DNA from: Candidatus Omnitrophota bacterium | GTDB taxonomy: Bacteria; Omnitrophota; Gorgyraeia; Gygaellales; Profunditerraquicolaceae | Direction of reading: 5' to 3' | NCBI GenBank assembly: GCA_028716965.1 | Contig: JAQUOV010000004.1 | Location: 8,377 to 72,376 of the forward strand | Length of the DNA: 64,000 nt | Shown here: piece by piece, positions 18,171-47,794 of the stretch | Numbering within the stretch: the stretch's first letter is position 1 | Layout of the letters: each line of letters starts with the position of its first letter | Translations under genes and position numbers: made by a program | Notes under the pieces: model-generated | Told to the model about the DNA's origin: nothing | The model's database searches: none | The model's input: only the letters and a program-made list of their open reading frames with translations

Positions 18171-18251
18171 TATGAACCCCTCGCCTTCTGTAAATTTAAC
18201 TATTGAAGCCATGGGGTTTAATGAGCTGACTAAGGAAGAAGGTGCGGGATG
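18171..18251 (+). repeat. Family A junction element, copy A1 (short derivative of the GIY-YIG cassette)
   Basis: Left arm TATGAACCCCTCGCCTTCTGTAAATTTAAC, right arm GAAGGTGCGGGATGA. Contains in-frame micro-[29 protein letters not shown] whose TGA overlaps ATG 18249 of the downstream gene. Confidence 0.75.
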
Positions 18252-18710
18252 AAAAAGAGCAGAACTATACATAAGCGCCCTACGTGGGATGAATATTTCC
18301 TGGAGATGGCAGGCTTGGTTGCCAAAAGGTCAACCTGCCTGCGCCGCTCTGTTGGTGCGGTATTGGTAAGAGAAAAAAGAATTTTGGCTACCGGTTATAA
18401 CGGCGCTCCCAGCGGTTTGAAGCACTGTGTTGAAATCGGCTGTATACGCCAGCAGTTAAAGATACCTTCCGGAGAACGCCATGAATTATGCCGCGCCTTA
18501 CATGCAGAGCAGAACGCGCTTATCCAGGCCTGCCTGCACGGCATAAGCGTAAAAGGCGCAACTTTATATGCCACTAATCAGCCGTGCGTTATCTGCGCCA
18601 AGATGCTCATTAACGCCGGGATAAGGGAGATCGTAATTGCCGAAGGCTACCCGGACAAAATGGCGATGAGCTTCTTAAGGCAGGCAAAGATAAGAATAAG
18701 GAAAATATGA
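18249..18710 (+). CDS. Deoxycytidylate (dCMP) deaminase, ComEB-like
   Basis: 153 aa. CDA-fold zinc motifs HAEQNA and PCVICAKML; N-terminus KRPTWDEYF typical of dCMP deaminases. Stop TGA lies inside the left arm of element A2. Confidence 0.8.
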
Positions 18711-19011
18711 ACCCCGCACCTTCTTTAAATTCAATAATGTACCATGCGTATCTTCTTAAAAGTAAAAAGAATGATACTTTTTATATTGGATATACAAATA
18801 ATATTGAAAGAAGGTTAAAAGATCATAGCTCCGGGATAGTTGAATATGCAGGGAAATATGTGCCTTGGGAAATAGTGTATTATGAAAGCTCTATTTCCTT
18901 GGTTGATGCTAATCAAAGGGAGAGATCTCTTAAATCTTTTGGGAGGGCATATTCAGGTTTAAAACTTAGAATTAAAAATAGCTTGAATAAGAAAGAAGGT
19001 GCGGGGTGAAG
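18704..19011 (+). mobile_element. Family A full-length element: TIR-flanked YhbQ-like GIY-YIG cassette (putative autonomous copy)
   Basis: Left end ATATGAACCCCGCACCTTCTTTAAATTCAA and right end TTGAATAAGAAAGAAGGTGCGGGGTGAAG are inverted complements (16-bp perfect core ACCCCGCACCTTCTTT). The ends enclose a 100-codon GIY-YIG ORF. Confidence 0.75.
18707..19009 (+). CDS. GIY-YIG nuclease superfamily protein (UPF0213/YhbQ-like)
   Basis: 100 aa. [32 protein letters not shown] matches the GIY-(x10)-YIG plus conserved R/H catalytic region of YhbQ-like proteins. Conserved EGAG near the C-terminus as in E. coli YhbQ. ATG overlaps upstream TGA (ATGA); its TGA overlaps the nrdR GTG (GTGA). Confidence 0.8.
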
Positions 19012-19473
19012 TGTCCGTTTTGCGGATATAAAGAGGATAAGGTCGTGGACTCCCGCGCTACAGCCGAAGAATCGGCAGTCAGGCGCAGAAGGGAATGCCT
19101 GAAATGCGGCAAGCGTTTCACTACTTATGAGTATGTTGAAGAGGTCTCTTTGTTAGTGATCAAGAAAGACGGCCGCAGGGAGGCCTTTGACCGTAAAAAG
19201 ATCTTAGCCGGTATAATCCGCGCCTGCGAAAAGCGTCCGGTGAGCGTGGAAAAGATGGAAGGGGTAGTTGTCCAGGTTGAGCATGCCATCCAGAAGAAAA
19301 GTGACCGCGAGGTTTTGTCCAGCAGGATAGGGGAGCTGGTTATGGAGAAGCTTAAGCAGATTGATGATGTTGCTTATGTGCGCTTTGCCTCGGTCTATAG
19401 GCAGTTTAAGGACGTGGGGCAGTTTATGGTGGAGTTGAGGGATATTTTGGGCAAAGATAAGAAGAAGAAATAG
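19006..19473 (+). CDS. nrdR: Transcriptional repressor NrdR
   Basis: 155 aa. N-terminal zinc ribbon MKCPFCG...CLKCGKRFTTYE plus ATP-cone; GTG start supplied by the element A2 right arm. Confidence 0.9.
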   Translation: MKCPFCGYKEDKVVDSRATAEESAVRRRRECLKCGKRFTTYEYVEEVSLLVIKKDGRREAFDRKKILAGIIRACEKRPVSVEKMEGVVVQVEHAIQKKSDREVLSSRIGELVMEKLKQIDDVAYVRFASVYRQFKDVGQFMVELRDILGKDKKKK

Positions 19474-19475
19474 GC

Positions 19476-19548
19476 GGTTAGCGGGTCCTGGCGAGGCTTG
19501 TTTTCGCCGCGCACCGCGACTCAAATCAAGCCTCGCCACCCGCTAACT
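19476..19548 (+). repeat. Family B 73-nt nested-hairpin repeat, copy 2 (after nrdR)
   Basis: Outer stem GGTTAGCGGGT/ACCCGCTAAC, second stem GCGAGGCTTG/CAAGCCTCGC, inner CGCGcacCGCG. Same 73-nt length and architecture as 7899-7971, with compensatory substitutions. Confidence 0.7.
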
Positions 19549-19587
19549 ATATTTCTTGTCTTTCCCTAAAACATAGAGGAGCCGGTA

Positions 19588-20001
19588 ATGGTTGAGATGG
19601 AGTTGAATAAGATTGTAATTGACGAGAAACGGCATGACCAGTTGATTGTTTTGAAAGAAAAAGGCGGCACGCGGGTTTTGCCGATCGTCATCGGCCTAAA
19701 TGAGGCCTCGGCCATAAAATTAAAGATCAGCGGGTTCAACCCGCCGCGGCCCCTTACGCACGATTTAATTTATACGATGCTTAAGGATTTAAACGCGGAT
19801 GTGGAGAAGGTGATTATCGATAAGCTGGAAGATACCACCTTTCATGCCAAGATCTTTATTAAAACCGGCAGCGGAGATTCAAGGATCATTGATGCCCGCC
19901 CTTCGGATAGCGTGGCTTTGGCAGTGAGGTTCCATGCTCCGATTTTTGTAGAAGATGAGATCGTCAGGCAGTTTGAGTTGTTTGATAAAGATAAGCAGTA
20001 A
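19588..20001 (+). CDS. Bifunctional nuclease family protein (DUF151/BFN domain)
   Basis: 137 aa. LPIVIGLNEASAI...RPLTHDL pattern typical of the DUF151 family. Confidence 0.75.
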   Translation: MVEMELNKIVIDEKRHDQLIVLKEKGGTRVLPIVIGLNEASAIKLKISGFNPPRPLTHDLIYTMLKDLNADVEKVIIDKLEDTTFHAKIFIKTGSGDSRIIDARPSDSVALAVRFHAPIFVEDEIVRQFELFDKDKQ

Positions 20002-20028
20002 AATACCCCACCTTAAATCTTAACGCTT

Positions 20029-21477
20029 ATGGAGCTTGGATTTAACGAGAAAGATAAAAGTATTTTAAGGCCGGTTTATGATTTTGCCAAAACCAGGAAG
20101 GTAAAATTATACCTTGTGGGCGGGGCGCTGCGCGATTTAATCTTAAGACGCCGGAAGAGTAATCCGGATTTTGATTTTTGCCTGTGCCGCGGGGCGATAA
20201 ATTTCGGCCGTAAGTTAGCCGCGAAACTAAGGGCAGGATTTGTAGTCCTGGATGAGGAGCACGCTGCCTGCCGGCTGGTAAAGAAGATCGGCGATAAGGT
20301 TTATACTTTTGATTTTACGGATTTCCGCGCCAGGACCCTGGAAAAAGACCTTTTGCACCGGGATTTTACCATAAACTCCATGGCCGTGGAGTTTAAAGAT
20401 GTCTTTAGCGGAGAAGATTTAAGCACATTAATTATTGATCCTTATTCCGGCAGGCAGGATATTAAGCGCAAGATCATCCGTGCCTGCGGCAGCAACTCTT
20501 TCAAAGAAGACCCTTTGCGGATCCTGCGCGCTTTTAGCTTTAGCTGTATGCTGGATTTTGCCCTGGATAAAGAAACATTGCGCCTGGCAAAAAAAGATAA
20601 ACATTTGATCAGCGATGTATCAAGCGAGCGCATCCGGGAAGAGTTATTCAAGATCTTTGACAGCCTTACGGCCGGTGCTTCTTTAGCTGTGTTGGACAAG
20701 CTTAAGATTTTAGAGATTATTTTCCCCGAGATAAAGCCCATGCGCGGTATCGGCCAGGGGCCTTATCATCACCTGGACGTCTGGCAGCATACCCTGGAGA
20801 CCTTAAGCCAGTTTGAGTTATTATTGAGCTCCTTTAAACAGAACCCTGAAATAAGCAAGTATCTGGAAGAGGAGGTCGCCGGACAGCGCAAAAGGTCAAG
20901 CCTTTTGAAGCTGGCCTGTATTTTGCACGATGTAGGTAAGCCGAAAGCCTTGCGCAGGGAAAAGGGCAAGATTATCTTCCATGGCCATGAAAGAATAGGC
21001 CTGGGAATAACCCGTATGATTTCCCGCAGGCTGAAGTTATCCAATGACGAAACCCGCTCCCTGGAAAGGATTGTACTCTGGCATTTAAGGCCGGGATACC
21101 TGGCGGACTGCATTCGGCCGACTGAGCGGGCGATCTTCAGGTATTTTCGCGATACCGGGGATGATGCCCTGGCAGTGCTTTTGTTATCGCTGGCTGACCA
21201 GCGTGCTACCAAAGGCCCGCTGACCACAGCGCTTTCGCGCGTACGCCATGAGAAAACAACAAAGGCGTTAATTAAAAGGCTGTTAAAACAAAAAGACGAA
21301 AAGGAATTAACCCGCCTTTTAAACGGCAATGACCTGATGCGTAAATTCAAATTAATGCCTTCGCCGCTGATCGGCAAAGTGCTCGCGGGCCTGGAGGAGG
21401 CGCAGGCCATCGGCAGGATTAAGAATAAAGAGCAGGCTTTTAAACTGGCAGCTTCCATAATTAAACAAAAAAAATGA
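20029..21477 (+). CDS. cca: CCA tRNA nucleotidyltransferase / poly(A) polymerase family with HD domain
   Basis: 482 aa. Pol-beta NTase head motif LVGGALRDLIL. HD motif region ILHDVGKP...HGHE. Confidence 0.85.
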   Translation: MELGFNEKDKSILRPVYDFAKTRKVKLYLVGGALRDLILRRRKSNPDFDFCLCRGAINFGRKLAAKLRAGFVVLDEEHAACRLVKKIGDKVYTFDFTDFRARTLEKDLLHRDFTINSMAVEFKDVFSGEDLSTLIIDPYSGRQDIKRKIIRACGSNSFKEDPLRILRAFSFSCMLDFALDKETLRLAKKDKHLISDVSSERIREELFKIFDSLTAGASLAVLDKLKILEIIFPEIKPMRGIGQGPYHHLDVWQHTLETLSQFELLLSSFKQNPEISKYLEEEVAGQRKRSSLLKLACILHDVGKPKALRREKGKIIFHGHERIGLGITRMISRRLKLSNDETRSLERIVLWHLRPGYLADCIRPTERAIFRYFRDTGDDALAVLLLSLADQRATKGPLTTALSRVRHEKTTKALIKRLLKQKDEKELTRLLNGNDLMRKFKLMPSPLIGKVLAGLEEAQAIGRIKNKEQAFKLAASIIKQKK

Positions 21478-23969
21478 AGAAGTTCATCATAATCGCCTTA
21501 ATCCTGCTTCTGCTTGTTTTTGCGGGGGCCGTGTATCTGAACGCTTTTTTCCTCCCCGGAAAGATAAAATCCATCATTGTCTCCACTTTGGCCCAGAAAA
21601 CAGGCAAGAATGTTACTCTTAGGTCTGTAGAGTTTAATATATTCAAAGGGCTGGTGCTGCGCGACCTGTCCATCTCAGACAACCAGCAGGTAATTGTAAG
21701 CGCCCGCCAGGCAAACTGCGTTATTTTCATCTGGCCTGTCTTTAAAAAGAAGATTATTATCCCCAGTATAAGCCTTAAAAGCCCGTATATATTTTTGGAG
21801 CGCAGAAAGGACGGTTCTTTTAACCTCCAGGATATTTTTGCCTCTGGCCCTGCGCTTGTAAAGTTGCCTGAAGCAAAGGAATCTAAATCAGGGAACTCCC
21901 AATTCAGCGTATCGGTTTACAGGATAAATATATCTTCCGGAACTATTGTTTTCCAGGATGATACCCCGGCAGTTCAGTTCAAGAAAGAGATAAACAATAT
22001 CCAGCTTAGCGTTGGCCTTGCTCTGCCGGTAAGCGTAAAGTTTAATTTTAAAGGGGACCTCGTTAATAACTCCGCGCCTTCTGCCCCTGCCGCCGGCTCT
22101 GTTTATGCCTGGGGAGAATACAGGATTTTAGGCCGAAAGCTATCCGCTAATTTATCGGCCAATAACCTGCTGCCCGCTGATTTCAAGCCTTATTACGGTA
22201 ATCTTGGTTTGGATTTGCTTTCGGGTACAGTTGACGCGCAGGCAAAAATAAATCTTAGGGAACAGGTCTTGCATATTGAGACAACCGCCAAAGCTGCCAA
22301 GCTGATTTTTGCGAAGAATAAGGTCACTGCCAGTTTAAACCTGGGCCTGGAAACCAAGGTCAATTATAACCTGCAGTCTAAAAAGGTTTCTTTTGACGGT
22401 AATTGCGATATCCGGCAGGCCGATATAAGCGGTTTGGATTTCTTCGGGGAACTGAAAAATCTTTATGGAAAAATTTCTTTTAACGAGCGTTCTTTGGTGG
22501 CCCAGGGTTTAAAGGCGGAAGTTTTAGGTATCCCATTTGAGGTTAACCTGGGGATCAAAGATTTTAACACTTGGGCCTTGAATATAAGCACTAATTTGAG
22601 CTTAAGCTTTCTGCCGGAGATCGCAAAGGAGAAATTTAATTTTACAAATGTGAACTCCGCGCTGGGCAAGGCGGAGTTGTTTGTTAAACTGCATCCGGAC
22701 GGAAAAGGCGGCTGGGCAATACAAGGTAAAGTGGATATCGCAGAGGCAGGCCTGAAATTTTCCCGGCAGGACGTGCCGGTAGAGAATATTTTCGCCACCT
22801 TTGAATTCAGCCAGCAGGGATTCAGCTGGTCGGAGACAAGATTTAAATATCAGGGGGTGGATTACCAGAGCAGCGGTGAGCTGTCTGACTTCTCCGCGCC
22901 TAAGGTAAGGATGCAGTTGTCTTCGCGGAGTTTATCCGTGGCCACTGTTTTTGAGATTGTTGGTAAGAAGATCAAGATTACCCAGGCCAAAGGTAAATAC
23001 CTTAATTCCCAGTTTCTCATCAGCGGCGATATTGATAATTCCGATCCTGCCGCACCGCAGGTGGATGTTGACGGAAAAGTTAACCTGGACCTGGGGGATT
23101 TAAGCGCGGCATGGGAGAAGAAATATCCTGCCATAAAGAATATGCAGCCAAAAGGCCAGCTGGATGCGCAGTTTAATCTGAACGGGCGGGTCCATGATAT
23201 CAAGAGTTGTTCTATCCAGGCAAAATTGTCCAGCAATAACATTTCTTTGCATGGTTTAAGCGCAAGCCAGTTCATGCTGGATTACCTGCAAGAGCAGAAG
23301 ATAGCCAGGGTAACTTCAATAGGCGCCGTTTTTTACGACGGGACAATTAACGGCAGCGCATCGCTTAACCTTGATTCGGATAATTTGCCGTATCATATAG
23401 AGCTGGCGGCAGAGGGAGTAAGGCTTGAGAAGCTGAAGCAGGATACATCATCCAGGAATAAAAATATCTCCGGTGTTTTGCGCGGGGAAATTAAACTTAA
23501 CGGTTTCTCCGGGGATTTGAATAAACTTAGCGGCTCGGGTGATTTTTCCGTCAAAGAAGGCAGGCTCTGGGAGTTGAATTTACTCCAGGGAGTGGGAAAG
23601 CTGTTATTTGCCAAGGACCTGGCAAGTATTGAGCTTTCGGAATGCGCATGCGCATTCCTGGTAAAAAGCGGCTTTGCTTATACGGATAACCTGAAGCTAA
23701 AGGGAAATGTCGCCGAACTTGCCGGGCCATTCAAGATCGGTTTTAACGGTTCCCTTGACGCAGCTTTAGAGGTGGATATCTTAAGCGAGATGGTGCCTTT
23801 AAGCGGTACGTTAAAGGATATTACTACCGCATTTATGGGCAAGGTGGGTAAAATCGGCGTAATTAAATTAAGCGGCTCGCTAAGTGAACCAAAATATTCC
23901 TTCCGGCCGGCTGTAACCAATATTATTAAAGGCCTTACCGATGTTTTTTTTGGTAAGAAGCCCCAATAA
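21474..23969 (+). CDS. AsmA-family / DUF748-like large membrane-anchored periplasmic protein
   Basis: 831 aa. N-terminal TM anchor MKKFIIIALILLLLVFAGAVYL, then a long beta-rich repetitive region typical of AsmA/TamB-like outer-membrane biogenesis proteins. Confidence 0.65.
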   Translation: MKKFIIIALILLLLVFAGAVYLNAFFLPGKIKSIIVSTLAQKTGKNVTLRSVEFNIFKGLVLRDLSISDNQQVIVSARQANCVIFIWPVFKKKIIIPSISLKSPYIFLERRKDGSFNLQDIFASGPALVKLPEAKESKSGNSQFSVSVYRINISSGTIVFQDDTPAVQFKKEINNIQLSVGLALPVSVKFNFKGDLVNNSAPSAPAAGSVYAWGEYRILGRKLSANLSANNLLPADFKPYYGNLGLDLLSGTVDAQAKINLREQVLHIETTAKAAKLIFAKNKVTASLNLGLETKVNYNLQSKKVSFDGNCDIRQADISGLDFFGELKNLYGKISFNERSLVAQGLKAEVLGIPFEVNLGIKDFNTWALNISTNLSLSFLPEIAKEKFNFTNVNSALGKAELFVKLHPDGKGGWAIQGKVDIAEAGLKFSRQDVPVENIFATFEFSQQGFSWSETRFKYQGVDYQSSGELSDFSAPKVRMQLSSRSLSVATVFEIVGKKIKITQAKGKYLNSQFLISGDIDNSDPAAPQVDVDGKVNLDLGDLSAAWEKKYPAIKNMQPKGQLDAQFNLNGRVHDIKSCSIQAKLSSNNISLHGLSASQFMLDYLQEQKIARVTSIGAVFYDGTINGSASLNLDSDNLPYHIELAAEGVRLEKLKQDTSSRNKNISGVLRGEIKLNGFSGDLNKLSGSGDFSVKEGRLWELNLLQGVGKLLFAKDLASIELSECACAFLVKSGFAYTDNLKLKGNVAELAGPFKIGFNGSLDAALEVDILSEMVPLSGTLKDITTAFMGKVGKIGVIKLSGSLSEPKYSFRPAVTNIIKGLTDVFFGKKPQ

Positions 23970-24001
23970 TTAGAAAAGAGAGGGGTAGCATCCGGGTATA
24001 A

Positions 24002-25578: not shown

Positions 25579-25584
25579 CCAAAA

Positions 25585-26319: not shown

Positions 26320-26320
26320 A

Positions 26321-27851: not shown

Positions 27852-27923
27852 GGACGTTTCTTGACCCAATCGGAGAAGTGTCCCCATAGGGGACACTTCT
27901 CCCTTTAGCTTGAGAAACGTCCC
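27851..27923. terminator. Family E 73-nt palindromic hairpin between convergent genes (likely bidirectional terminator), copy 1
   Basis: GGGACGTTTCTTGACCCAATCGGAGAAGTGTCCCC pairs with GGGGACACTTCTCCCTTTAGCTTGAGAAACGTCCC. Located between the Macro-Nudix stop (27851) and the helicase stop (27929). Confidence 0.6.
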
Positions 27924-27928
27924 TAATA

Positions 27929-29859: not shown

Positions 29860-30085
29860 TATTCGCTTTCCGTCTTTCGCTTCGGCACGAAGATTTTCGC
29901 TGTGTGCTTCGGTTTACGTCTCGTTTCGGCAGCGCAGGTTCCTTACGCAATAAGGCATTGCCTGCACTCGCCGTAAAGCCTTGCACACTTTTGCCGAAAA
30001 TCTTCTCATTGTGCCTCCAGCAAAAGACGGAAATCTCATGGCGAGAAACAAGCCAAGGCAGCTCCGATAGCTAAAATCATTGATT
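29860..30085 (+). repeat. Family D MITE-like long-hairpin element, copy 1
   Basis: TTCCGTCTTTCGCTTCGGCACGAAGATTTTCGCTGTGTGC ... GCACACTTTTGCCGAAAATCTTCTCATTGTGCC ... CAAAAGACGGAA; arms are imperfect inverted complements. Homologous to 54165-54395. Confidence 0.65.
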
Positions 30086-32926: not shown

Positions 32927-32934
32927 TTAACTAA

Positions 32935-33025
32935 CGGATGGTCCTTAAGCCAAGGGAAAAGTGTCCTTTGTAGAGGAAGTTATCCACTACGGGGACACTT
33001 CTCCGATTGGCTCAAGAAACGTCCC
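32935..33025 (+). repeat. Family E hairpin, degenerate copy 2 (after spoVG)
   Basis: Right half GGGGACACTTCTCCGATTGGCTCAAGAAACGTCCC (32991-33025) is the inverted complement of the E1 left arm. Left partner CCAAGGGAAAAGTGTCC is degenerate. Confidence 0.5.
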
Positions 33026-33035
33026 TGCTTAAAAG

Positions 33036-34731: not shown

Positions 34732-36732
34732 ATGTCTAAAAATCTGGTTATCGTAGAGTCGCCTACCAAGGCTAAAACCATAAGCAAGATCCTGGGCCAG
34801 GATTTTAGCGTGGTTTCCTCCATGGGGCATATTATTGACCTGCCGCAGAAAGAATTGGGCGTAGATGTAGATAATAATTTCAAGCCGGAATATGTGATTA
34901 TCCCGGCCAGAAAGAAATTGTTGACCCAGCTTAGAAAAGAGGCCAAGTCAAAAGAGAAGATATATGTGGCAACCGACCCTGACCGGGAGGGTGAGGCAAT
35001 CGGCTGGCAGATAAAAGAAAAGGTCTTTAAGGGCAAGGATGTCCTGCGGGTAAGTTTTCATGAGATTACCCCGCATGCGGTAGGGGAGGCCTTTAAATCC
35101 GCACGTGAGTTTGACGCCAATATGATTGAGGCCCAGGTCGGCCGCAGGGTGCTGGACCGTATCGTCGGATATTTCTTGAGCCCTTTACTTTGGAAAAAAC
35201 TTGCCCGCGGTTTAAGCGCAGGGCGCGTGCAATCCGTAGCCTTAAGGCTGATCGTGGAACGGGAACGCCAGATCCAGGCCTTTACCGCCAGCGAATATTG
35301 GGAGATTATCGCGGAGTTATTTAAGCCTAAGGTCTTCGGGGAGAGTAGTTTTTGCGCTAAACTTGAAAAGATAGACGGTGAAAAAGCGCAGATTAAGACC
35401 CAGGATGAAGCGCAAGCGATCGTAGAGCAGCTTAAGGAAAAAGAGTTTAAGGTCCTGGAGGTTAAGCAAACAGAAAAGAAACGCTATGCCCCGGCTCCAT
35501 TTATCACCAGCACTATGCAGCAGGAGGCCTTTAATAAGCTTAAGTTTAATGCCTCCAAAACCATGATGGTGGCGCAGCAGCTTTACGAGGGTATTGATAT
35601 CGGCGGGGATAACCCCCTGGGCTTGATTACTTATATGCGTACGGATTCTCCGAATACCGCTCCGGAGGCAGTTGCCGAAGTGCGTGAGCATATCGGCAGG
35701 GTCTTCGGCAAGGATTTTGTCCCGGAGAAACCGAATTTTTTCAAGGCTAAAAAATCAGCGCAGCAGGCGCATGAAGCGATCCGGCCAAGCTATGTTTCGC
35801 GTTCTCCGGAAAGCATGAAAGATTTCTTAAGCCACGACCAGTTTCGTTTATATGAGCTCATTTATAACCGTTTCCTGGCCAGCCAGATGAAACCCGCTGA
35901 ATTCCTGGCTACTTCGGTAGATATCTGCGCGGATAAATATTTGTTTGCGGCTAACGGAAGCCATTTGCTTTTTGAGGGGTTCCTGGCTGCTTACAACAGG
36001 ACCGAAGAGGAGGAAAAGGATGACGAGGAGGAGAAAGAAAAAAACAAGAATGTGGTCCCTCCTTTAGAACAAGGAGAGGTTCTCGGTCTGACTAAGCTTG
36101 TGCCCTCCCAACATTTTACCAAGCCGCCTCCGAGGTTTTCGGACAGCTCTTTAGTCAAGGCCCTGGAAGAGGACGGGATCGGCCGGCCTTCAACCTACGC
36201 GCCGATTATTTACACGCTCATTCTGCGCGATTATGTGCGCAGGATTAAAGGCTATCTTAACCCCACGGAGCTTGGTTTCAAGGTCAGCGATATGCTGGTA
36301 GAATATTTCCCGAAGATTATAGATGTCAAGTTTACCGCGCTTATGGAGGATGAGCTGGATGAGATTGAAGAAGGCAGGCTTAAGCGCGTGGAGGTATTAA
36401 AAGAATTCTACGCCCCTTTTAAAGAGAGCCTGGATTTTGCCCAGGCGAATATAAAGAAGGAGGTTATTACTACCGATCAGATTTGCGATAAATGCGGCAA
36501 GCCTTTTATCATAAAGTGGGGCCGGCGCGGTAAATTCCTGAGTTGTTCGGGTTTTCCCTCCTGCAAGAATTCCAGGTCTATTACTTCCGGTGTCAAATGC
36601 CCGGAAGAAAATTGCGGCGGGGAATTGATCGAGCGCAGGTCAAAGCGCGGTTTTTTCTATGGTTGTTCAAACTTTCCGAAATGCACCTTTACCTCGCGTA
36701 CGTTGCCGCAGGATAAGGAAGATACGCAATGA
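34732..36732 (+). CDS. topA: DNA topoisomerase I
   Basis: 666 aa. TOPRIM N-terminus MSKNLVIVESPTKAKTISKILG, active-site Tyr region, C-terminal Cys4 zinc ribbons (CDKCGKP, CPEENCGG). Confidence 0.92.
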   Translation: MSKNLVIVESPTKAKTISKILGQDFSVVSSMGHIIDLPQKELGVDVDNNFKPEYVIIPARKKLLTQLRKEAKSKEKIYVATDPDREGEAIGWQIKEKVFKGKDVLRVSFHEITPHAVGEAFKSAREFDANMIEAQVGRRVLDRIVGYFLSPLLWKKLARGLSAGRVQSVALRLIVERERQIQAFTASEYWEIIAELFKPKVFGESSFCAKLEKIDGEKAQIKTQDEAQAIVEQLKEKEFKVLEVKQTEKKRYAPAPFITSTMQQEAFNKLKFNASKTMMVAQQLYEGIDIGGDNPLGLITYMRTDSPNTAPEAVAEVREHIGRVFGKDFVPEKPNFFKAKKSAQQAHEAIRPSYVSRSPESMKDFLSHDQFRLYELIYNRFLASQMKPAEFLATSVDICADKYLFAANGSHLLFEGFLAAYNRTEEEEKDDEEEKEKNKNVVPPLEQGEVLGLTKLVPSQHFTKPPPRFSDSSLVKALEEDGIGRPSTYAPIIYTLILRDYVRRIKGYLNPTELGFKVSDMLVEYFPKIIDVKFTALMEDELDEIEEGRLKRVEVLKEFYAPFKESLDFAQANIKKEVITTDQICDKCGKPFIIKWGRRGKFLSCSGFPSCKNSRSITSGVKCPEENCGGELIERRSKRGFFYGCSNFPKCTFTSRTLPQDKEDTQ

Positions 36733-36944
36733 ACCTTGTAAATTTCTCGCTCAAGCCGATTTTTTAACGCCAATGTTCTTTCATATTCCGGCGGTTGCAG
36801 AACTTACGGTATTTGCTCTGGCAAATACCACTCAAACAGCTTCGCCGTCCCCGTTTTGTCGCTTCGCTCCACGGGGATTCCCGGAATACTGAAAGCTCCA
36901 TTGGCTAAAATCGACATTCGCTCGAAATTTACCAGGTTCATTTT
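36728..36944 (+). repeat. Family C MITE-like element, copy 2 (inserted at the topA stop codon)
   Basis: Head AATGAACCTTGTAAATTTCTCGCTCAAGCCGATTTTTTAACGCCAATG and tail CATTGGCTAAAATCGACATTCGCTCGAAATTTACCAGGTTCATTT are inverted complements. The topA TGA lies inside the terminal AATGAACC. Confidence 0.7.
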
Positions 36945-37840: not shown

Positions 37841-37885
37841 GAAAGCAGCATATAGCAGGTAGCATATGGAATTTAGGGAAAAACT

Positions 37886-39157: not shown

Positions 39158-39169
39158 AAAGGAGATAAA

Positions 39170-39640: not shown

Positions 39641-39646
39641 GTGCTT

Positions 39647-40084: not shown

Positions 40085-40087
40085 CCT

Positions 40088-40261: not shown

Positions 40262-40269
40262 TAAGAGCA

Positions 40270-40695: not shown

Positions 40696-40699
40696 AGAA

Positions 40700-41997: not shown

Positions 41998-42041
41998 AGC
42001 CTGCGGGCTAATGTCCGGGTTAACTTTCGGGGCAGGTTAAT

Positions 42042-42518
42042 ATGAAAACTAATGATAAAAAATTTATGCGCCTGGCGATCGAAAAGGCCAGGGATGGCAT
42101 AAGCAAAGGCCAGACGCCGTTTGGCGCCTGTATCGTAAAAGGGAACAAGGTCATCTCTTGTTGTCATAACCTTGTTTGGAAAAATACCGATATTACCGGC
42201 CATGCCGAAATAACGGCAATCCGCCAGGCCTGCAAAAAGCTTAAAAAAGTTGACCTCTCCGGTTGTGTTATCTATTCCACATGCGAGCCTTGCCCGATGT
42301 GTTTTGCGGCATGCCATTGGGCAAGGGTCAGAAGGGTTGTTTTCGGCTGCGCGATTAAAGATGCGAAGGGTTATGGTTTTAATGAATTGCAGGTTTCTAA
42401 CCGGCAATTAAAACTTCTGGCAAAAAGCAAGGTCAGGATCACCGCGGGAGTATTACTGGAGGAGAATATCGGGCTTTTTAATCTCTGGAAGGCGCAGGCA
42501 AAGCCCAGGGCTTATTAA
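42042..42518 (+). CDS. CDA-fold deaminase (tRNA adenosine deaminase TadA / guanine deaminase type)
   Basis: 158 aa. HAEITAIRQA and CEPCPMCFAACHWARVRRVVFG zinc-binding motifs. Confidence 0.75.
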   Translation: MKTNDKKFMRLAIEKARDGISKGQTPFGACIVKGNKVISCCHNLVWKNTDITGHAEITAIRQACKKLKKVDLSGCVIYSTCEPCPMCFAACHWARVRRVVFGCAIKDAKGYGFNELQVSNRQLKLLAKSKVRITAGVLLEENIGLFNLWKAQAKPRAY

Positions 42519-42572
42519 CGAAGATTGTAATATATTCCCGGGCGTGTTAATATAGAGAAAGTGAGGGGATAA

Positions 42573-42956
42573 ATGTATAAGGTGGAGGTTGTGCATAAAC
42601 AGGACCTGGCCTTCAGTGTAAAGTCAGGCGAAAGCGAATTCTTGGTGGATGCAAAAGGCAATGGGTTGACCCCTTTGCATGCGCTGCTGGCCGGTTTAGG
42701 CAGTTGTGTCGGAGTTTATATCCGCAAATATGCCGAAGGCTCAAAGTTGAACCTGGAAAATTTCGAGGTTAATGTTTCTGCGGAGCTTTCTAAGGAATCT
42801 CCTTTGTCTTTCAGGCAGATCAGTGTGGGGATAGATTTAAAATCCTCTCTGGCCGATGAACGCAGGCAGAAGGCGCTGCTTGAGTTTATCAAAAACTGCC
42901 CCGTGCATAATACTTTGAAGATAAACCCGCTTATTGAATTTAAATTGATATGTTAG
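42573..42956 (+). CDS. OsmC/Ohr family peroxiredoxin-like protein
   Basis: 127 aa. LAGLGSCVG motif with the conserved Cys pair (second in CPVHNTL). Confidence 0.75.
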   Translation: MYKVEVVHKQDLAFSVKSGESEFLVDAKGNGLTPLHALLAGLGSCVGVYIRKYAEGSKLNLENFEVNVSAELSKESPLSFRQISVGIDLKSSLADERRQKALLEFIKNCPVHNTLKINPLIEFKLIC

Positions 42957-43672
42957 AGATAAAGATAAGGCAGAATAGCAATATCATTATCCTGGATTTA
43001 TCCGGCCGTGTAGATGCCAATTCCGCAAAACTGGTGGAGATAGTCGGCCAGTGCCTGCGTGAAGGGTATGCGGATATCCTCTGTAATTTAGAGGAGGTGG
43101 AGAGTATTGATTATATCGGTATCTCGGTGCTGGTTATCGCCTATAAAGAGGTGGTTAATAACCGCGGGAGAATGAAATTCATGAATATCCCCATACATCT
43201 CAGGGGGGTGTTTACGGTTTCCGGAATGGATAGGGCCATTGAGATTTACGCTACGGAAGAGTCGGCATTGAATAGTTTTAAGGAAGATAAGGTGATTGAA
43301 GGCATCAAGAAGATGCAGCTTCGCCGCAGGTTCAAGCGCCTGCCCATTGATTTAAAAATAGAGTTAAAATCTAAAACCTCCGGTCAGCCAAGCTGCCTTA
43401 AGGTTGATATATTAAATTTAAGCGCCGTAGGCGCCTTTATATTCGGTTGCGATAAGTTCAAGCTCGGCGACGAATTAATACTTAACATGAAACTGGCGCC
43501 CAGAGAGGAAGAGCTTGTGCTTGACGCATCCGTAGTATGGATCCCGGATAAAGAGGTCCAGCCGCACGAGTATCCGGGTATCGGCGTAGAGTTCCGTAAC
43601 CTCTCTGCCGAAACTCAGCAAAAGCTGATTGATTTCATCGAACGTAACCTTTCCTTTATGTCCTCTGATTGA
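42950..43672 (+). CDS. STAS domain (anti-sigma-antagonist-like) fused to PilZ domain
   Basis: N-terminal STAS pattern IIILDLSGRVDANSA...VESIDYIGISVLV. C-terminal RRFKRLPID...DxSxxG-like segment (DILNLSAVGAFIF) typical of PilZ c-di-GMP receptors. Confidence 0.6.
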   Translation: MLEIKIRQNSNIIILDLSGRVDANSAKLVEIVGQCLREGYADILCNLEEVESIDYIGISVLVIAYKEVVNNRGRMKFMNIPIHLRGVFTVSGMDRAIEIYATEESALNSFKEDKVIEGIKKMQLRRRFKRLPIDLKIELKSKTSGQPSCLKVDILNLSAVGAFIFGCDKFKLGDELILNMKLAPREEELVLDASVVWIPDKEVQPHEYPGIGVEFRNLSAETQQKLIDFIERNLSFMSSD

Positions 43673-43682
43673 TTATTGATAT

Positions 43683-44339
43683 ATGAAAAAGCTGAAAATA
43701 AGGCCGCGGGCAATTATTTTTGACATGGACGGGGTAATTGTTGATTCCATGCCTTATCACTTTATCGCCTGGTATGAGGCTTTAAGGCCATGGGGGGTGC
43801 GGGTAAGCTGTTTTGAGGTTTACATGCAGGAAGGGGAGCGTTGGGAAGCTACCCTTAAGGGGCTGCTAAGGCGCGCAAAGATCAAACCGACCAAGAAAAT
43901 CTTAAAGGCAATATTCAGCCTGCGCCAGAAGGTATTCAGGCGTTATTTCAAGCGTTATATCTTTCATGGCGCTTATGAATTATTGGTTGCATTAAAAAAA
44001 CAGGGTTTCAGGCTGGGATTAGTTACGGGAAGCCCGCTCAACGAGATAAAAAGTATCCTGCCTGTTAAGCTGCGCAGGGTTTTTAACGCCGTAGTAGCCG
44101 GCAACCAGGTTAAAAAAGGTAAGCCTCATCCTGAACCTTATCTTAAGGCAGCCGGATTATTGGGGCTTGAACCGGGAACCTGTTTGGTTGTAGAGAACGC
44201 TCCCCTCGGTATAGCTTCAGCTAAACAGGCAGGGATGCCGTGTATAGCTGTTTCCACCAGCCTGCCTAAAGAGTATTTGTCCGGTGCGGATATAGTTGTC
44301 AGCCAACTCGCTCAGATCTCCAGTTACATCCCGCTTTAA
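43683..44339 (+). CDS. HAD-superfamily hydrolase (beta-phosphoglucomutase-like subfamily IA)
   Basis: Motif I IIFDMDGVIVDS, motif II LVTGS, motif IV region with conserved D. Confidence 0.75.
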   Translation: MKKLKIRPRAIIFDMDGVIVDSMPYHFIAWYEALRPWGVRVSCFEVYMQEGERWEATLKGLLRRAKIKPTKKILKAIFSLRQKVFRRYFKRYIFHGAYELLVALKKQGFRLGLVTGSPLNEIKSILPVKLRRVFNAVVAGNQVKKGKPHPEPYLKAAGLLGLEPGTCLVVENAPLGIASAKQAGMPCIAVSTSLPKEYLSGADIVVSQLAQISSYIPL

Positions 44340-44454
44340 TTACATATCTTATTGGTATTCTTGCGTTTTAATCTTTGAAACCATTTGCTTGGATACGCCT
44401 TATGTGATAATATACTTTTTTAAAGAACCCTTATTCGGAGAGAGGAGCAGGAGT

Positions 44455-44727
44455 ATGGATTGGAAGATTTTCTTGGCTACTTTTGGCGCAGTATTCTTTG
44501 CGGAATTAGCGGATAAGACCCAGTTGGTGGGTATCGGCATGGCAGCTAAGACCGGTAAGCCCGTTTCTGTCTGGTTAGGTTCAGTATCGGCCTATGTTAT
44601 TGTCACGTTGATCTCGGTTTTCCTGGGATCTGTTTTAGCCAAATTTATCCGGCCCGAGCTGGTGCGTTATATAGGCGCATCCCTGTTTATTATTATCGGG
44701 TTTTTGATGCTTTTTAAGGCAATTTAA
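44455..44727 (+). CDS. UPF0016 (Gdt1/TMEM165-like) cation transporter half-unit
   Basis: Start ATG 44455 after GGAGCAGGAG. Signature ELADKTQL (E-x-G/A-D-K-T); three TM helices (single-repeat form). Confidence 0.65.
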   Translation: MDWKIFLATFGAVFFAELADKTQLVGIGMAAKTGKPVSVWLGSVSAYVIVTLISVFLGSVLAKFIRPELVRYIGASLFIIIGFLMLFKAI

Positions 44728-44735
44728 TATTCATT

Positions 44736-45797
44736 ATGTCTTTATCAAGAGATTATTTGTATGATTTAGTTACCTGTAAGGCAAAAGGGCCGTTGGCGGC
44801 GCTTTTAAGAGGTTTGTTGTTTTTATTTTCCTTGCTTTATGGGCTGGCTGTGGTTATCCTGGCGGGTTTTTATAAGCTGCGTCCGGCGCATGTTAGTTGC
44901 AAAGTAATCAGCGTAGGCAATATTACTTTGGGCGGCACAGGGAAGACTGCCCTTGTGGAATATTTGGCGGCTAAGTTAAGCAGGAAAGGGATCAAAGTGG
45001 CGGTGCTCACCCGGGGATATAAAAGAAACGTAAAGCTCCCGGGGATGCAGGGCATGGGTGATGAGCCGCAGATGCTGCAAAAGAAACTTCCGCAGGTACC
45101 AGTGGTTGTAGATAAGGACAGGTTGAGGGCGGCAGGTCAGGCAATCAAAGATTATGCCGCCGATGCCCTGATCCTGGACGACGGTATGCAGCAGTGGAGG
45201 ATATTCAAAGATTTGGAGTTTATAACGATTGATGCCGGGAATCCTTTTGGCAATTATCGCTTGCTTCCGGCAGGTTTTTTACGCCAGCCGCTGGGTGCAT
45301 TAAGGCATTCAGAGATATTTGTTTTGACCCAGGTTAACCCCGGGCAGGATACAACAGCCCTTACGGAGAGGTTAAAGCAGATTAATCCCCGCGCCTTGAT
45401 TGCGGAATCAAGACATAAGCCCGAGGGCTTTAGCAAGCTGGGCAGCCCGGGTGAAATTTTAAGCGTGGACAGCTTTAAGGGTGTATCTGCGGTAGTCTTC
45501 TCGGGGATTGGCAGCCCACAGGCGTTTGAAGATACGGTCCGCTGGCTGGGAATTGGTGTAGCCCGGGCTTTAAGGTTTGCCGATCATCATGATTATACGG
45601 AGACGGATTTAGAAGGCATTATCGGATGCGCAAAAAAAATGTGTTTGGATACGATTATTACAACTGAAAAGGATGCCGTAAAGATCGCCAGGCTTAAATT
45701 TGGCCGCTCGCGCATATTTTCTTTGAACATCAAACTGGTTATAACTAAAAATGAAGCAGAATTTGATCGCCGATTACTTAAGCTGTTTTCTCTTTAG
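44736..45797 (+). CDS. lpxK: Tetraacyldisaccharide 4'-kinase
   Basis: 353 aa. N-terminal TM and P-loop VGNITLGGTGKT typical of LpxK. Confidence 0.85.
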   Translation: MSLSRDYLYDLVTCKAKGPLAALLRGLLFLFSLLYGLAVVILAGFYKLRPAHVSCKVISVGNITLGGTGKTALVEYLAAKLSRKGIKVAVLTRGYKRNVKLPGMQGMGDEPQMLQKKLPQVPVVVDKDRLRAAGQAIKDYAADALILDDGMQQWRIFKDLEFITIDAGNPFGNYRLLPAGFLRQPLGALRHSEIFVLTQVNPGQDTTALTERLKQINPRALIAESRHKPEGFSKLGSPGEILSVDSFKGVSAVVFSGIGSPQAFEDTVRWLGIGVARALRFADHHDYTETDLEGIIGCAKKMCLDTIITTEKDAVKIARLKFGRSRIFSLNIKLVITKNEAEFDRRLLKLFSL

Positions 45798-47715
45798 GGC
45801 CGCAAGCCTCCTTACTTCTTTTCTGCCTTTAAATGTGAGCCTGTTTTTTGGCAGGAGGCTGGGGGACCTTATTTATTTCTTTGATGCCCGGCACCGCGGG
45901 ATCGCCTGCGCCAATATCAGGAGGGCCATAGTAATGAATAATGACTTCCTGCAGGCCCGCAAGATAACACGCAGGGCTTATCAGTCTTTTGGCCAGAACC
46001 TTATAGAGATTTCTTTTATCCCGCGCATAAATAAAAAATATCTTGATAAATTCATCCATATTGAAAACAGGCAGTATATTGATGAAGCCTTTAAAAGGGG
46101 CAAAGGGGTAATCTTTCTGGCTGCCCATGAAGGTAATTGGGAGCTTTCTAATATTATCTGTGCCAACCTGGGTTTTTCGTTTATCCTGTTTGTCCGCGAC
46201 CAGGGTTTCGTGCGGCTAAACGCCCTGCTTAATTCTTACCGGCTTAAGCAGGGCGCAAAGATTATCCATAAAAAAACCGGGCTGCGCCAGTTGATTGATG
46301 TGCTTGAAAGCAACCAATCCATAGGCATGACCGTTGACCAGGGGGGCAAGCACGGAGAGGTAGTGAATTTCTTTGGCAAATCCGCCTCGATGTCTACCGG
46401 TGCGGTGAAGCTGGCCCTGAAACATGACTGTTCCATAATCCCTGTTTTTTATACGCGCATAAAAGGGCCTCATACTAAAGTTATCCTGGATCAGGTTTAT
46501 ACGGTAAGCAAAAGCGGGGACCTGCAAAGGGACCTGCGCGATAACCTGGAGAGGCTGGTCAATATTTACGAGAAATATATCCGGCAATACCCCCACGAGT
46601 ATCTCTGGACTTATAAAATTTGGAAGTATGGCAAAGAAAAAGATATCCTCATTCTTTCCGACGGTAAGGCCGGGCACCTGCGCCAGTCTGAAAGCGTAGC
46701 TAAGTTAGCCAGCCGGAAATCAGCTGCCCGGGGGGTAAAGACTACTTTGTCTATTTGCGAAGTGAAATTCCGCACCAGCCTGCGCAGGTTTATATTCAGC
46801 CGGATGGTTGTACTATGCGGCAGGCATCAATACCATCTCTGCCTGCGTTATCTGCGCTATGCGCTGGAGGCAGCAAGCTGGCAGAGTTTGATCGGTTTCA
46901 AGCCCGATATTGTTATTTCCGCAGGGGGTAAATTGAGCGGGGTAAATTATATGCTGGCTAAAATAAACCAGGCTAAATCAATTGTCCTGATGCGTCCGGC
47001 AGCCCTAAACCCAAAGGGATTTGACCTGGCAATTATTCCCGAACACGATATGCCGCAGGGCCGTGGTTTGGCTTTCAGGAAAAATATAGTACTAACCGAA
47101 GGGGCGCTTAATTTGGTGGATGCGGATTATCTAAGAGAAAGGTCAGAGAGGCTGCAGCAGTCAGGTTTTTTGAAAGGGCCTTTGTTGAAACCCTGTATCG
47201 GAGTTTTGATCGGCGGCAATAGCAGGAAGTTTTCAATTACCCGGCAGGCGATAATAGAACTGGCAGGTCAAATCAAGGGGGCTGCTGAAAAGCTTGATGC
47301 GGATATCCTCTTATCCACCTCGCGCCGTACGCCGCCTGAAATAGAACAGCTGCTTAAAAATGAATTTGAAGCTTATCCGCGCTGCAGGCTTTTAATTATT
47401 GCCAATGAAAGAAATCATCCTGATGCCGTAGGCGGCATACTGGGGTTAAGCAGGGTAATTGTCAGTTCGCCGGAGAGCATCTCCATGATCTCCGAAGCGG
47501 TGGCGGCAGAAAGATATGTTATCGTATTTATGGCCTCCGGCCTTAGTATGAAGCATCGGCGTTTCTTGAAAAGTTTTCAGGACAAGAGGTATATATATAT
47601 AAAACAGGCTGGAGAGTTGTTTAGCTCCATTGAAGAGATATGGCAAAACCGTCCTGAGCTTAACTTTTCTGCGGATAACTCAAGGGTAAGCGCAGCTTTA
47701 GATAAAATACTATGA
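45751..47715 (+). CDS. Lipid A late acyltransferase (LpxL/HtrB family) fused to ELM1/DUF1022-like domain
   Basis: N-terminal half has the HX4D acyltransferase motif (AAHEGNWELS) and EYLWTYKIWKY motif of LpxL. C-terminal ~330 aa resembles the mitochondrial-fission ELM1 / DUF1022 glycosyltransferase-like family. Annotated start overlaps lpxK by 47 nt, so the true start may be later. Confidence 0.7.
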   Translation: MKQNLIADYLSCFLFRAASLLTSFLPLNVSLFFGRRLGDLIYFFDARHRGIACANIRRAIVMNNDFLQARKITRRAYQSFGQNLIEISFIPRINKKYLDKFIHIENRQYIDEAFKRGKGVIFLAAHEGNWELSNIICANLGFSFILFVRDQGFVRLNALLNSYRLKQGAKIIHKKTGLRQLIDVLESNQSIGMTVDQGGKHGEVVNFFGKSASMSTGAVKLALKHDCSIIPVFYTRIKGPHTKVILDQVYTVSKSGDLQRDLRDNLERLVNIYEKYIRQYPHEYLWTYKIWKYGKEKDILILSDGKAGHLRQSESVAKLASRKSAARGVKTTLSICEVKFRTSLRRFIFSRMVVLCGRHQYHLCLRYLRYALEAASWQSLIGFKPDIVISAGGKLSGVNYMLAKINQAKSIVLMRPAALNPKGFDLAIIPEHDMPQGRGLAFRKNIVLTEGALNLVDADYLRERSERLQQSGFLKGPLLKPCIGVLIGGNSRKFSITRQAIIELAGQIKGAAEKLDADILLSTSRRTPPEIEQLLKNEFEAYPRCRLLIIANERNHPDAVGGILGLSRVIVSSPESISMISEAVAAERYVIVFMASGLSMKHRRFLKSFQDKRYIYIKQAGELFSSIEEIWQNRPELNFSADNSRVSAALDKIL

Positions 47716-47794
47716 ACCTCGCACCTTCTAAGTATCCGACTATTAAAGGTATGAGGTTGAATGGATTTATTAAAGAGGAAGGTGCGGGGTGAAG
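47711..47794 (+). repeat. Family A junction element, copy A3
   Basis: TATGAACCTCGCACCTTCT ... GAGGAAGGTGCGGGGTGAAG. In-frame micro-ORF MNLAPSKYPTIKGMRLNGFIKEEGAG. Supplies the TGA stop of the upstream gene and the GTG start of the downstream gene. Confidence 0.75.

Follow-up and report, generated by a model that had tools for sequence, protein, structure and literature searches.

Seven copies of one repeat family in the window

The DNA analysed here, hereafter the window, is a 64,000-nt stretch from a Candidatus Omnitrophota bacterium (GenBank assembly GCA_028716965.1, contig JAQUOV010000004.1, forward-strand positions 8377 to 72376; coordinates below count from its first letter). Seven copies of one mobile-element family lie in these 64 kb, all on the + strand and all between co-directional genes. 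One of them, A2, is a full-length element encoding a GIY-YIG nuclease; the short copies have lost the core of that gene. A first reading of the sequence (the original prediction) had noted that two short copies, A1 and A3, keep an intact micro-open reading frame (micro-ORF) with both termini of the GIY-YIG protein. It attributed this to decay of a coupled ORF and proposed that the overlapping stop and start codons may be maintained by selection for translational coupling of the flanking genes.

A2 (18707-19009, + strand, 303 nt) consists of a single ORF for a 100-aa, single-domain GIY-YIG nuclease, which begins with MNPAPSLN and ends with NKKEGAG. Its ATG overlaps the stop codon of the upstream dCMP deaminase gene (ATGA), and its TGA overlaps the GTG start of nrdR (19006). 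Both of its terminal repeats, or arms, are perfect (left 18712-18723, right 18995-19006), with TGAA at 18708-18711 and 19007-19010.

A1 (18172-18252, + strand, 81 nt) is placed between glyA (stop TAA 18168-18170) and the dCMP deaminase gene, and contains an intact 26-codon micro-ORF. The ORF is real, as predicted, but its boundaries had been set at 18177-18251, and a start at 18177 gives stops. The left repeat (18177-18188) is decayed (CCCCTCGCCTTC), the right repeat lies at 18238-18249, and the TGAA copies are at 18173-18176 and 18250-18253. The dCMP deaminase start, ATG at 18249, is made of the last repeat base, mutated from G to A, plus TG. A3 (47712-47792, + strand, 81 nt; arms 47717-47728 and 47778-47789) has an intact 26-codon ORF exactly where it had been placed, with the translation MNLAPSKYPTIKGMRLNGFIKEEGAG followed by the stop. 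Its ATG overlaps the stop (TGA 47713-47715) of an upstream lipid-A acyltransferase/ELM1-like gene. The sharing of termini with the full-length protein (ORF 18707-19009) was borne out for both copies, as was the overlap of the terminal TGA with the downstream start: ATG 18249 for A1, and for A3 GTG 47789, the start of a GT4-GT9 glycosyltransferase gene.

The remaining copies are broken, again in agreement with the original prediction. A4 (49879-49956, + strand, 78 nt) has an in-frame length and a stop at codon 11; G-T/G-U wobbles allow its left repeat, CCCCGTATCTTC, to go on pairing with the right one, and shortening of the right end has left the glycosyltransferase gene that follows with an ATG start at 49953. 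A5 (55371-55451, + strand, 81 nt) combines near-perfect terminal repeats with three internal stops and a third arm in its interior (AAGGTGCAGGGG, 55405-55416). Its neighbours are a deoxyhypusine-synthase-like gene on the left (stop 55372-55374) and a gene for a PfkB kinase on the right (GTG 55448). A6 (58015-58157, + strand) is a composite copy with an extra C in its left end (58020-58032) and two right ends. The first is degenerate (58082-58093, followed by ATAA), and the second (58143-58154, followed by TGAA) provides the gene that follows with its probable GTG start (58154); kdsA, on the upstream side, has its stop at 58016-58018.

Arm spacing is 48-49 nt in all five short copies of the window, which are 61-73% identical. 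They align with about 40 nt at each end of the GIY-YIG gene, including about 20-25 nt on each side beyond the arms. Judged by these alignments, the short copies (78-96 nt) are non-autonomous, internally deleted derivatives, resembling REPINs and transposable elements of the miniature inverted-repeat kind (MITEs), of an insertion sequence (IS)-like element that encodes a GIY-YIG nuclease.

Some copies are tandem or nested composites or have doubled right ends, such as A6 (58082-58157) and a three-unit composite in another genome (L003:2429-2693) that can still be read as one open frame of 90 codons. In many short copies a third arm lies in the interior, with (N)TGAATAA after it, which gives the appearance of a smaller hairpin unit fused to a right end standing alone.

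Inverted repeats, target duplication and empty sites

The termini that the copies have in common are reverse complementary to one another, a relation not seen in the original prediction. CCCCGCACCTTC and GAAGGTGCGGGG form terminal inverted repeats of 12-14 bp (a 12-bp perfect core, and a 14-bp stem in an alignment of 20 copies) with TGAA outside each; in the full-length element they sit inside the first and last codons (MNPAPS... and ...EGAG before the stop). Allowing at most two mismatches, the 12-mer GAAGGTGCGGGG matches the window 20 times, against 5.6 ± 2.4 times in shuffled sequences, none of which reached 20.

We collected further copies by scanning species-representative genomes with the pattern AACCCCGCACC-N45-75-GGTGCGGGGT and metagenomes with CCCCGCACCTTC-N35-65-GAAGGTGCGGGG, each scan returning at least 120 loci (numbered with an L). 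More than 128 unique copies were obtained; the copy statistics refer to 128 of them that are short and flanked by TGAA, from genomes and metagenomes of Omnitrophota, and perfect repeat cores were required in both scans. The matches listed from the first scan came from Omnitrophota, many Patescibacteria, Planctomycetota, Nitrospirota, Thermodesulfovibrionia, Methylococcaceae and others. Among the copies listed, the short ones measure 60-106 nt, are multicopy and are devoid of the coding capacity of the parent. The tetranucleotides outside the repeats are mostly identical pairs (TGAA/TGAA 140, TGAG/TGAG 8, TCAA/TCAA 21 and TAAA/TAAA 16, with few mismatched pairs among the copies listed).

To reconstruct sites before insertion, we joined the left flank, NTGAA and the right flank, with the element and one TGAA removed, and searched these constructs against all collected loci. 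They aligned across orthologous junctions with a single ATGAA, placed at the start codon, in four pairs of loci (L198/L079, at 84% identity, L223/L203, L174/L156 and L230/L180), and the orthologous empty junction read ATGAG in three more (L143/L186, L035/L183 and L178/window:16465). The glyA|dcd junction that holds A1 is empty in two orthologous loci (L124 and L178) and filled in a third (L192), where the copy is 1 nt shorter. In two homologues of the full-length element, a short copy has landed close to the right end, within the conserved ...AGT TTG AAT...; deleting the nested copy with one TTGAA (L255) or TGAA (L256) restores the C-terminus of the family (e.g. NSLNMVKGAG and the stop). Synteny searches with tblastn, using ten flanking proteins against the first 120 loci, gave nothing useful where the empty-site constructs succeeded, and exact-protein look-ups for strain-level presence or absence of NrdR (first residue V or M) and of the window GIY-YIG protein returned no record.

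Target duplications, orthologous empty sites and nested insertions together require insertion events. We conclude, from the comparison of junctions, that the element inserts at TGAA and duplicates this TGAA. Decay of a coupled ORF thus describes part of the history: the short copies are internally deleted derivatives, but they have been transposed to scattered sites and have inverted repeats and a duplicated TGAA. The stop/start overlap is not ancestral and then preserved by selection, because the insertion itself creates the GTGA stop/start.

The full-length copy at L255:856-1218 has an outermost repeat pair of T...A rather than C...G, so that pairing is kept and the host start changes from GTG to ATG. 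A1 and A4 likewise have ATG at the position of the new start.

In Patescibacteria and other phyla (e.g. L023, L049, L087 and L094), AACCCCGCACC...GGTGCGGGGT ends bracket elements of 65-95 nt that form long near-perfect hairpins, have TCAA or TAAA flanks and lie away from gene starts; no coding partner of these elements was found within the 8-kb blocks (L001-L120). One element of 252 nt with the same ends (L237:4729-4980) has small palindromes, CCACGGATTTTAATCCGTGG and CCACGGACTTTAGTCCGTGG, in place of the nuclease gene; the ends of the family can therefore carry other cargo.

Placement at host start codons

An ORF of at least 60 codons begins exactly at the GTG or ATG of the right end in 113/128 copies, compared with 5% of random TGAA sites in the same loci; this start codon is GTG in 122 copies and ATG in 6. 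Upstream, an ORF of at least 60 codons is found in 88/128, ending at ATGA in 48 and within the 10 nt upstream in 40. Immediately 5' of the left TGAA, 109 copies have A, 17 have G and 2 have T, a distribution like that of start codons. The effect on both sides of the element can be read off the sequence. The left TGAA keeps the native ATG of the host gene, which often overlaps the upstream stop and now opens the ORF of the element, and the last G of the right repeat together with the right TGAA gives GTGA, a new host start overlapping the element stop.

Full-length copies elsewhere show the same overlaps, the nuclease stop overlapping the next start in each case: gcvPA|GIY|gcvPB (L121), dcd|GIY|nrdR (L124-127), HAD|GIY|epimerase (L128) and RND adaptor|GIY|AcrB (L131). 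In the window, the Pfam zinc-ribbon profile matches NrdR, read from GTG 19006, from residue 1, and the element-made GTG is therefore the real start. TAAA- and TCAA-flanked relatives, mostly from Patescibacteria, were also considered as possible stop- or start-codon targeting elements and rejected as such, start-codon placement being absent from both groups (0/23 and 0/19). As far as the sequences collected here tell, nearly all surviving TGAA-flanked copies occupy the ATGAA of a host start codon and point the same way.

The nuclease and its likely role in mobilization

The A2 protein matches Pfam GIY-YIG (PF01541) with an E-value of 3e-12 over residues 11-77 of 100. An AlphaFold2 (AF2) model (predicted local distance difference test 84) gives a single GIY-YIG fold at residues 12-93 and no extra DNA-binding domain; the repeat-encoded residues 1-10 and 94-100 are low-confidence, unstructured tails. 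A metagenome-assembled genome of Candidatus Omnitrophica has an annotated protein that is 100% identical to it. When 29 homologues were aligned, the N-terminal MNPAP and the C-terminal GAG proved (near-)invariant down to 47% identity, like the catalytic residues, as would be expected of ends that are repeats at the DNA level.

The nearest solved structures are UPF0213 BH0048 (phmmer E 3e-4, 24 bits) and SLX1 nuclease domains, with I-TevI and UvrC much weaker. The matches to the UPF0213 proteins (BH0048, EF2693) and the SLX1 nuclease domain are weak (phmmer E 3e-4 and 5e-3; Foldseek E about 1e-3, template modelling score 0.46-0.60) and indicate a common branch of the fold. In NCBIfam all matches stayed below threshold; the model for group I intron endonucleases scored 16.6 bits, where 56 is the cut-off. 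The protein does not group with the Seg or I-TevI homing endonucleases: it has no extra domain, its gene is found at many unrelated junctions, and its match to I-TevI has an E-value of 0.4.

A closer match is found among the Ssn nucleases, single-domain GIY-YIG proteins of about 94 aa that cut single-stranded DNA (ssDNA) next to hairpin repeats called NTS or SRM (PMC11893778). The window protein shares 31% identity with a gonococcal 94-aa GIY-YIG ORF (BLASTP E 1e-12), and a profile of the family matches it with an hhalign probability of 98.3%. This match is stronger than that to UPF0213 BH0048, a comparison that serves as a proxy for membership in the SsnA clade cd10448. The gonococcal ORF lies amid 16 dRS3/NTS repeats in 2.65 kb, with one inverted NTS on each side. 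This SsnA orthologue comes from a gonococcal chromosome catalogued as a plasmid. The record NZ_CP119140.1 (L254) is a "plasmid" of 2.17 Mb, and at least two Neisseria gonorrhoeae plasmid records are chromosome-sized, barely annotated and look misfiled.

Repeats bracket the nuclease gene also in L121, L124 and L131, and in L128 with a degenerate right repeat. Among the loci listed, repeat pairs 140-3500 nt apart with matching flanks belong either to the GIY-YIG class (295-370 bp) or to two neighbouring short copies, and no IS-like unit of 0.7-3 kb was seen between matching repeats. A conventional IS with the same ends was accordingly rejected: in these loci the GIY-YIG class is the only coding unit between matching repeats, and no recognized transposase accompanies it. 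Among the papers searched by phrase, none contained "GIY-YIG transposase", transposon, insertion sequence or mobile element, and none paired GIY-YIG with Omnitrophica.

The orientation of the interior relative to the non-palindromic TGAA is fixed in 125/128 copies. Selection on the ORF was rejected as the cause, because the flipped orientation would be open in 44/79; the fixed orientation points to a strand- or orientation-specific mechanism. By analogy with Neisseria SsnA and NTS, the hairpin that the repeats form is the probable substrate of the nuclease, which likely cuts at the repeats.

The full-length copy at dcd|nrdR is orthologous to that in L124, with 65% amino acid identity and a ratio of non-synonymous to synonymous differences (pN/pS) of 0.34; the neighbouring proteins are 72-92% identical, with pN/pS of 0.07-0.23. 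On these figures, the nuclease at this locus looks like the product of long-term vertical maintenance under purifying selection, as in the REPIN-RAYT systems discussed below. In a relative from Nitrospira (L033) the repeats lie just outside the ORF, with TATA on both flanks, and close relatives from Phycisphaerae are devoid of the EGAG tail; the embedding of the repeats in the ORF is therefore derived in this Omnitrophota lineage. One homologue of 179 aa (P0052) has two tandem GIY-YIG domains in one ORF and may be a fusion of adjacent elements.

Reading frame and openness of the short copies

Two in-frame copies of five in the window carry no statistical weight alone. The original prediction had proposed comparing frame conservation across copies with a chance expectation of about one third, and the larger sample shows a clear excess. 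The length from NTG to TGA, modulo 3, leaves residues 0, 1 and 2 in 79, 19 and 30 of the 128 copies (about 43 in frame expected; binomial p 5e-11). Lengths form a ladder of 3-nt steps (8 copies of 78 nt, 32 of 81, 16 of 84, 5 of 87, 5 of 90 and 6 of 96), with neighbouring lengths sparser. When one copy was kept per interior cluster at 10, 20, 30 and 40% distance, 73/120, 61/104, 42/70 and 14/28 were in frame (p 7e-10, 1e-7, 4e-6 and 0.05).

Openness exceeds chance as well. The interior is free of stops in 55 of the 79 in-frame copies, against 12.8 ± 3.2 (maximum 26) in 2000 shuffles, and the other two frames of the same copies are stop-free in 7 and 5. Out-of-frame copies meet a stop inside the element in 44/49 cases, frequently at a TGAATAA that is conserved 23 nt before the end, and altogether 73/128 copies (57%) are not intact. 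Intactness depends on the gene upstream: 44/79 copies with an abutting upstream gene are intact, compared with 6/25 copies with none (Fisher p 0.006), and the difference holds with one copy per cluster (33/63 vs 5/23, p 0.014).

The peptides themselves are not constrained. Interior entropy by codon position is 1.21/1.15/1.27 (permutation p 0.24; 0.22 in the 84-nt class), and interior pN/pS is 0.70, against 0.91 and 1.04 in shifted frames, with a pS of 0.51. Frame and openness thus appear to be selected and the peptide sequence unconstrained. Because the excess of in-frame, open copies comes without peptide constraint, the preserved feature would be translatability, not a protein. Translational coupling, as originally suggested, is a plausible cause of this frame preservation.

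A terminal stem and a possible translational relay

In 20 copies of the 81-nt class, RNAalifold found a single conserved structure, a 14-bp terminal stem that pairs columns 5-18 with 66-79 (-24.9 kcal/mol) and includes one compensatory change, from C-G to U-A. Conserved internal RNA structure was considered and rejected, the terminal stem alone being found. Of the new GTG, two bases (columns 78-79) out of three lie in the stem, together with an AAGG just upstream. A recognizable Shine-Dalgarno sequence precedes about half of the ordinary genes of the window, and AAGG is among the weaker ones. Four of the five short window copies fold at -22 to -29 kcal/mol (z -2.7 to -4.3), including the broken A4 (-22.3 kcal/mol, z -3.4) and A5 (-28.6 kcal/mol, z -4.3); the decayed A6 reaches -16.5 kcal/mol (z -0.8). 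No Rfam family matched anywhere in the window at the gathering threshold and E <= 0.01, and a known ribozyme or riboswitch was rejected on this basis.

These features suggest a translational relay. The terminal stem would bury the new start of the host gene and its AAGG unless a ribosome passes. A ribosome that begins at the native ATG, or re-initiates there after the upstream gene, would read the open micro-ORF, melt the stem in transit, terminate on GTGA and restart on the host gene. Insertions with an open frame would then be less harmful and would persist. Such a relay would account for the excess of in-frame, stop-free copies without peptide conservation, because transit of the ribosome is what is needed, and it fits the dependence of openness on the upstream gene. 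Taken together, a start-codon-targeting, Ssn-like GIY-YIG element with MITE-like copies and a translational relay is probably the best explanation of the family.

Several observations weigh against this explanation. The perfect cores required in the scans make the sample lean toward well-preserved copies. The copies are also phylogenetically non-independent, and the coarsest clustering (28 clusters) leaves only half in frame. The genes downstream of broken copies (57% overall; 3/5 in the window) look intact, so that the relay is not essential everywhere. The TGAATAA stop of out-of-frame copies, about 23 nt before the host start, might still allow coupling, and much of the stem may come open when a ribosome terminates on the upstream gene, even if it never translates the micro-ORF. 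At the first genes of operons, openness is lower, whereas a relay through the native start predicts that it should be equal. Concerning mobility, GIY-YIG enzymes hydrolyse DNA and, to our knowledge, do not join strands, so the nuclease may not be the transposase; and vertical inheritance at dcd|nrdR fits a domesticated gene as well as an active element.

Alternative explanations

The micro-ORFs could be incidental. The copies would then be purely structural palindromic repeats, akin to repetitive extragenic palindromic (REP) sequences or MITEs, whose open frame is inherited from the ends of the parental ORF and whose translation is not selected. The target duplication does supply both the ATG and the TGA, the terminal stem is the only conserved structure, codon-position periodicity is absent with pN/pS at 0.70, more than half of the copies (73/128) are not intact, and the modal class of 32 copies of 81 nt could reflect one successful master copy. 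However, the interiors have diverged strongly (pS 0.51), and 55 of 79 in-frame copies are nevertheless free of stops where 12.8 would be expected; the 3-nt ladder is unlike a neutral length spectrum, on the assumption that single-base indels dominate, and openness is tied to an abutting upstream gene. We consider this account unlikely, though far from negligible.

Alternatively, an unlinked DDE-type transposase could move the repeats, the GIY-YIG gene being cargo or a domesticated host gene. A 4-bp target duplication combined with terminal inverted repeats, as found here, is the hallmark of DDE transposition. Strand joining is not a known activity of hydrolytic GIY-YIG nucleases, the full-length copy is inherited vertically (pN/pS 0.34), and close relatives do not have the repeat-encoded tails. 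Yet the sole coding unit between matching repeats in the loci listed is the GIY-YIG class of 295-370 bp, and the ends encoded by the repeats stay (nearly) unchanged in nuclease homologues as distant as 47% identity. Moreover, orientation is fixed in 125/128 copies when flipped copies would be open almost as often (44/79), and Ssn nucleases bind and cut their own flanking hairpins (PMC11893778). A separate DDE enzyme is, in our view, unlikely.

A domesticated host function has been proposed for SsnA and NTS in Neisseria, namely ssDNA restriction or modulation of recombination, and the repeats of the window could in the same way mark gene starts for such a function, the nuclease then acting on ssDNA that is incoming or being replicated and not moving the repeats. 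Homology to the gonococcal SsnA orthologue, the vertical retention of the nuclease gene at one locus and the high density of copies (seven in 64 kb) agree with this, as does the modulation of transformation by NTS/SsnA (PMC11893778). It leaves the target duplications, empty sites and nested insertions unexplained, and equally the bias toward in-frame, open copies. As the whole explanation we hold it to be decidedly unlikely, but it is compatible with an origin from a mobile element and not exclusive of it.

Functional peptides of 25-31 residues, for example a truncated regulator or an antidote related to the nuclease termini, are very improbable and were rejected: a consensus MNPAPS.YS.IK... 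does recur across genomes in ORFs open beyond chance, but conservation is confined to the repeat-encoded ends and nearby DNA in common with the parent gene, interior codons show neither periodicity nor a third-position excess, their pN/pS differs little from that in the shifted frames used as controls, the copies range from 60 to 102 nt in length, and the corresponding residues of the nuclease are disordered tails in the AF2 model.

Other repeats in the window

Two other families of intergenic repeats, about 90-200 nt long, 83-94% identical and with the common motif TTGCACACTTTTGCCGAAAATCTTCTAATTGTGCC, lie upstream of genes (10398-10597 and 36728-36928; 29865-30045 and 54188-54368; also 10639-10683). 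They bear no relation to the GIY-YIG element, and Rfam gave no match for them. An 81-nt repeat (7885-7965 and 19462-19542, 80% identical) lies directly 3' of two genes, one of which is nrdR; it contains an 11-bp G+C-rich inverted repeat, GGCGAGGCTTG...CAAGCCTCGCC, and may be a palindromic family or a terminator-like module. A 36-nt intergenic repeat (27889-27924 and 32991-33026, 86% identical) reads GGGGACACTTCTCC...AGAAACGTCCCT.

Implications

The comparative evidence from duplications, empty sites and nested insertions shows that repeats of the Ssn kind do insert. If the proposed relay is correct, the element lands on a host start, hijacks both this start and its coupling to the upstream gene, and hands the ribosome back at GTGA. 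It would in effect splice itself out at translation, by keeping operon genes coupled, unlike introns, which do so at the RNA level, or inteins, at the protein level. We further suggest, tentatively, that this may be a previously undescribed class of transposable element, whose sole protein is an Ssn-type GIY-YIG nuclease of about 100 aa, which evolved a translational relay and whose miniatures are kept open by selection. As a natural experimental system, the family would allow termination-reinitiation and hairpin-controlled initiation to be studied in uncultivated bacteria. For annotation, many ORFs of 25-30 codons and many GTG starts in Omnitrophota genomes would be element-derived.

Comparison with known systems

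The closest counterpart is the Ssn system. Scattered NTS/SRM repeats number in the hundreds and also flank the ssn genes (Chenal et al., Nat Commun 2025, PMC11893778). It was shown that these nucleases bind the hairpin repeats on their own flanks and cut them, and NTS/SsnA is reported to modulate transformation (Chenal et al., PMC11893778). The authors noted that NTS-ssnA-NTS resembles an insertion sequence, likened it to IS200/IS605 and REP/RAYT, and left open the mobility of repeat-nuclease-repeat units; Omnitrophota and Patescibacteria are unmentioned (PMC11893778). The element described here shares with Ssn a single-domain GIY-YIG protein (about 94-100 aa) and a gene bracketed by an inverted, G+C-rich palindromic motif that is also dispersed in multiple copies. 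Even the outline of the motif is similar, GTCAtt-CCCGCG...CGCGGG-aaTC in Ssn and (G)TCAA/ATGAA-CCCCGCACC...GGTGCGGGG-TCAA/TGAA here.

The differences lie in how the repeat is built and used. The Ssn repeat is a self-contained hairpin of 20-30 nt, whereas each arm here is half of one long hairpin. The SRM pattern HGTCWYN(0-2)YYVSBRHN(0-5)WNVSBRGN(0-2)RNCYNB consequently has no match in the 64-kb window, against nine in the 2.65-kb gonococcal locus, because the arms enclose the whole element and are 49-280 nt apart instead of 0-5 nt. Since Patescibacteria, Planctomycetota, Nitrospirota and further phyla have the repeat core too, the family extends far beyond the reach of the SRM pattern. In the Omnitrophota family, the arms lie inside the nuclease ORF, insertion is demonstrated, and the copies sit at start codons with open frames. 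For two features we found no earlier description: the embedding of the repeats in the nuclease ORF, and a putative built-in translational hand-over, which appears to be selected even in copies that have lost the protein.

MITEs, such as the Correia elements of Neisseria, are multicopy units of less than 300 bp with inverted repeats and a target duplication that form a long stem when transcribed. The short copies resemble bacterial MITEs in being short and multicopy, in having terminal inverted repeats and a target duplication, and in being deleted relatives of a coding element. They differ in that their coding partner is a 100-aa GIY-YIG nuclease, in their orientation-specific insertion at the non-palindromic TGAA and in the rebuilding of the start codon. 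The pairing of REP-derived REPINs with RAYT genes offers another likeness, a vertically inherited nuclease gene under purifying selection with cognate palindromic repeats and short non-autonomous copies, but the enzyme is an HUH Y1 protein there and a GIY-YIG protein here, and REPINs are extragenic and not organized as ORFs. The IS200/IS605 family leaves no target duplication, whereas TGAA is duplicated here.

Phage homing endonucleases such as T4 Seg and I-TevI are likewise selfish GIY-YIG genes between co-directional genes. They have DNA-binding domains, are without terminal inverted repeats or MITE derivatives, and home to one allelic site; the window protein is also structurally nearer to SLX1 and UPF0213 than to I-TevI. 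A last parallel concerns the reading frame. Rickettsia palindromic elements are translated within the host protein, and there, as here, the mobile palindromic repeats that survive keep the frame; the Omnitrophota element, in contrast, forms a separate ORF between two genes, with stop/start overlaps on both sides.

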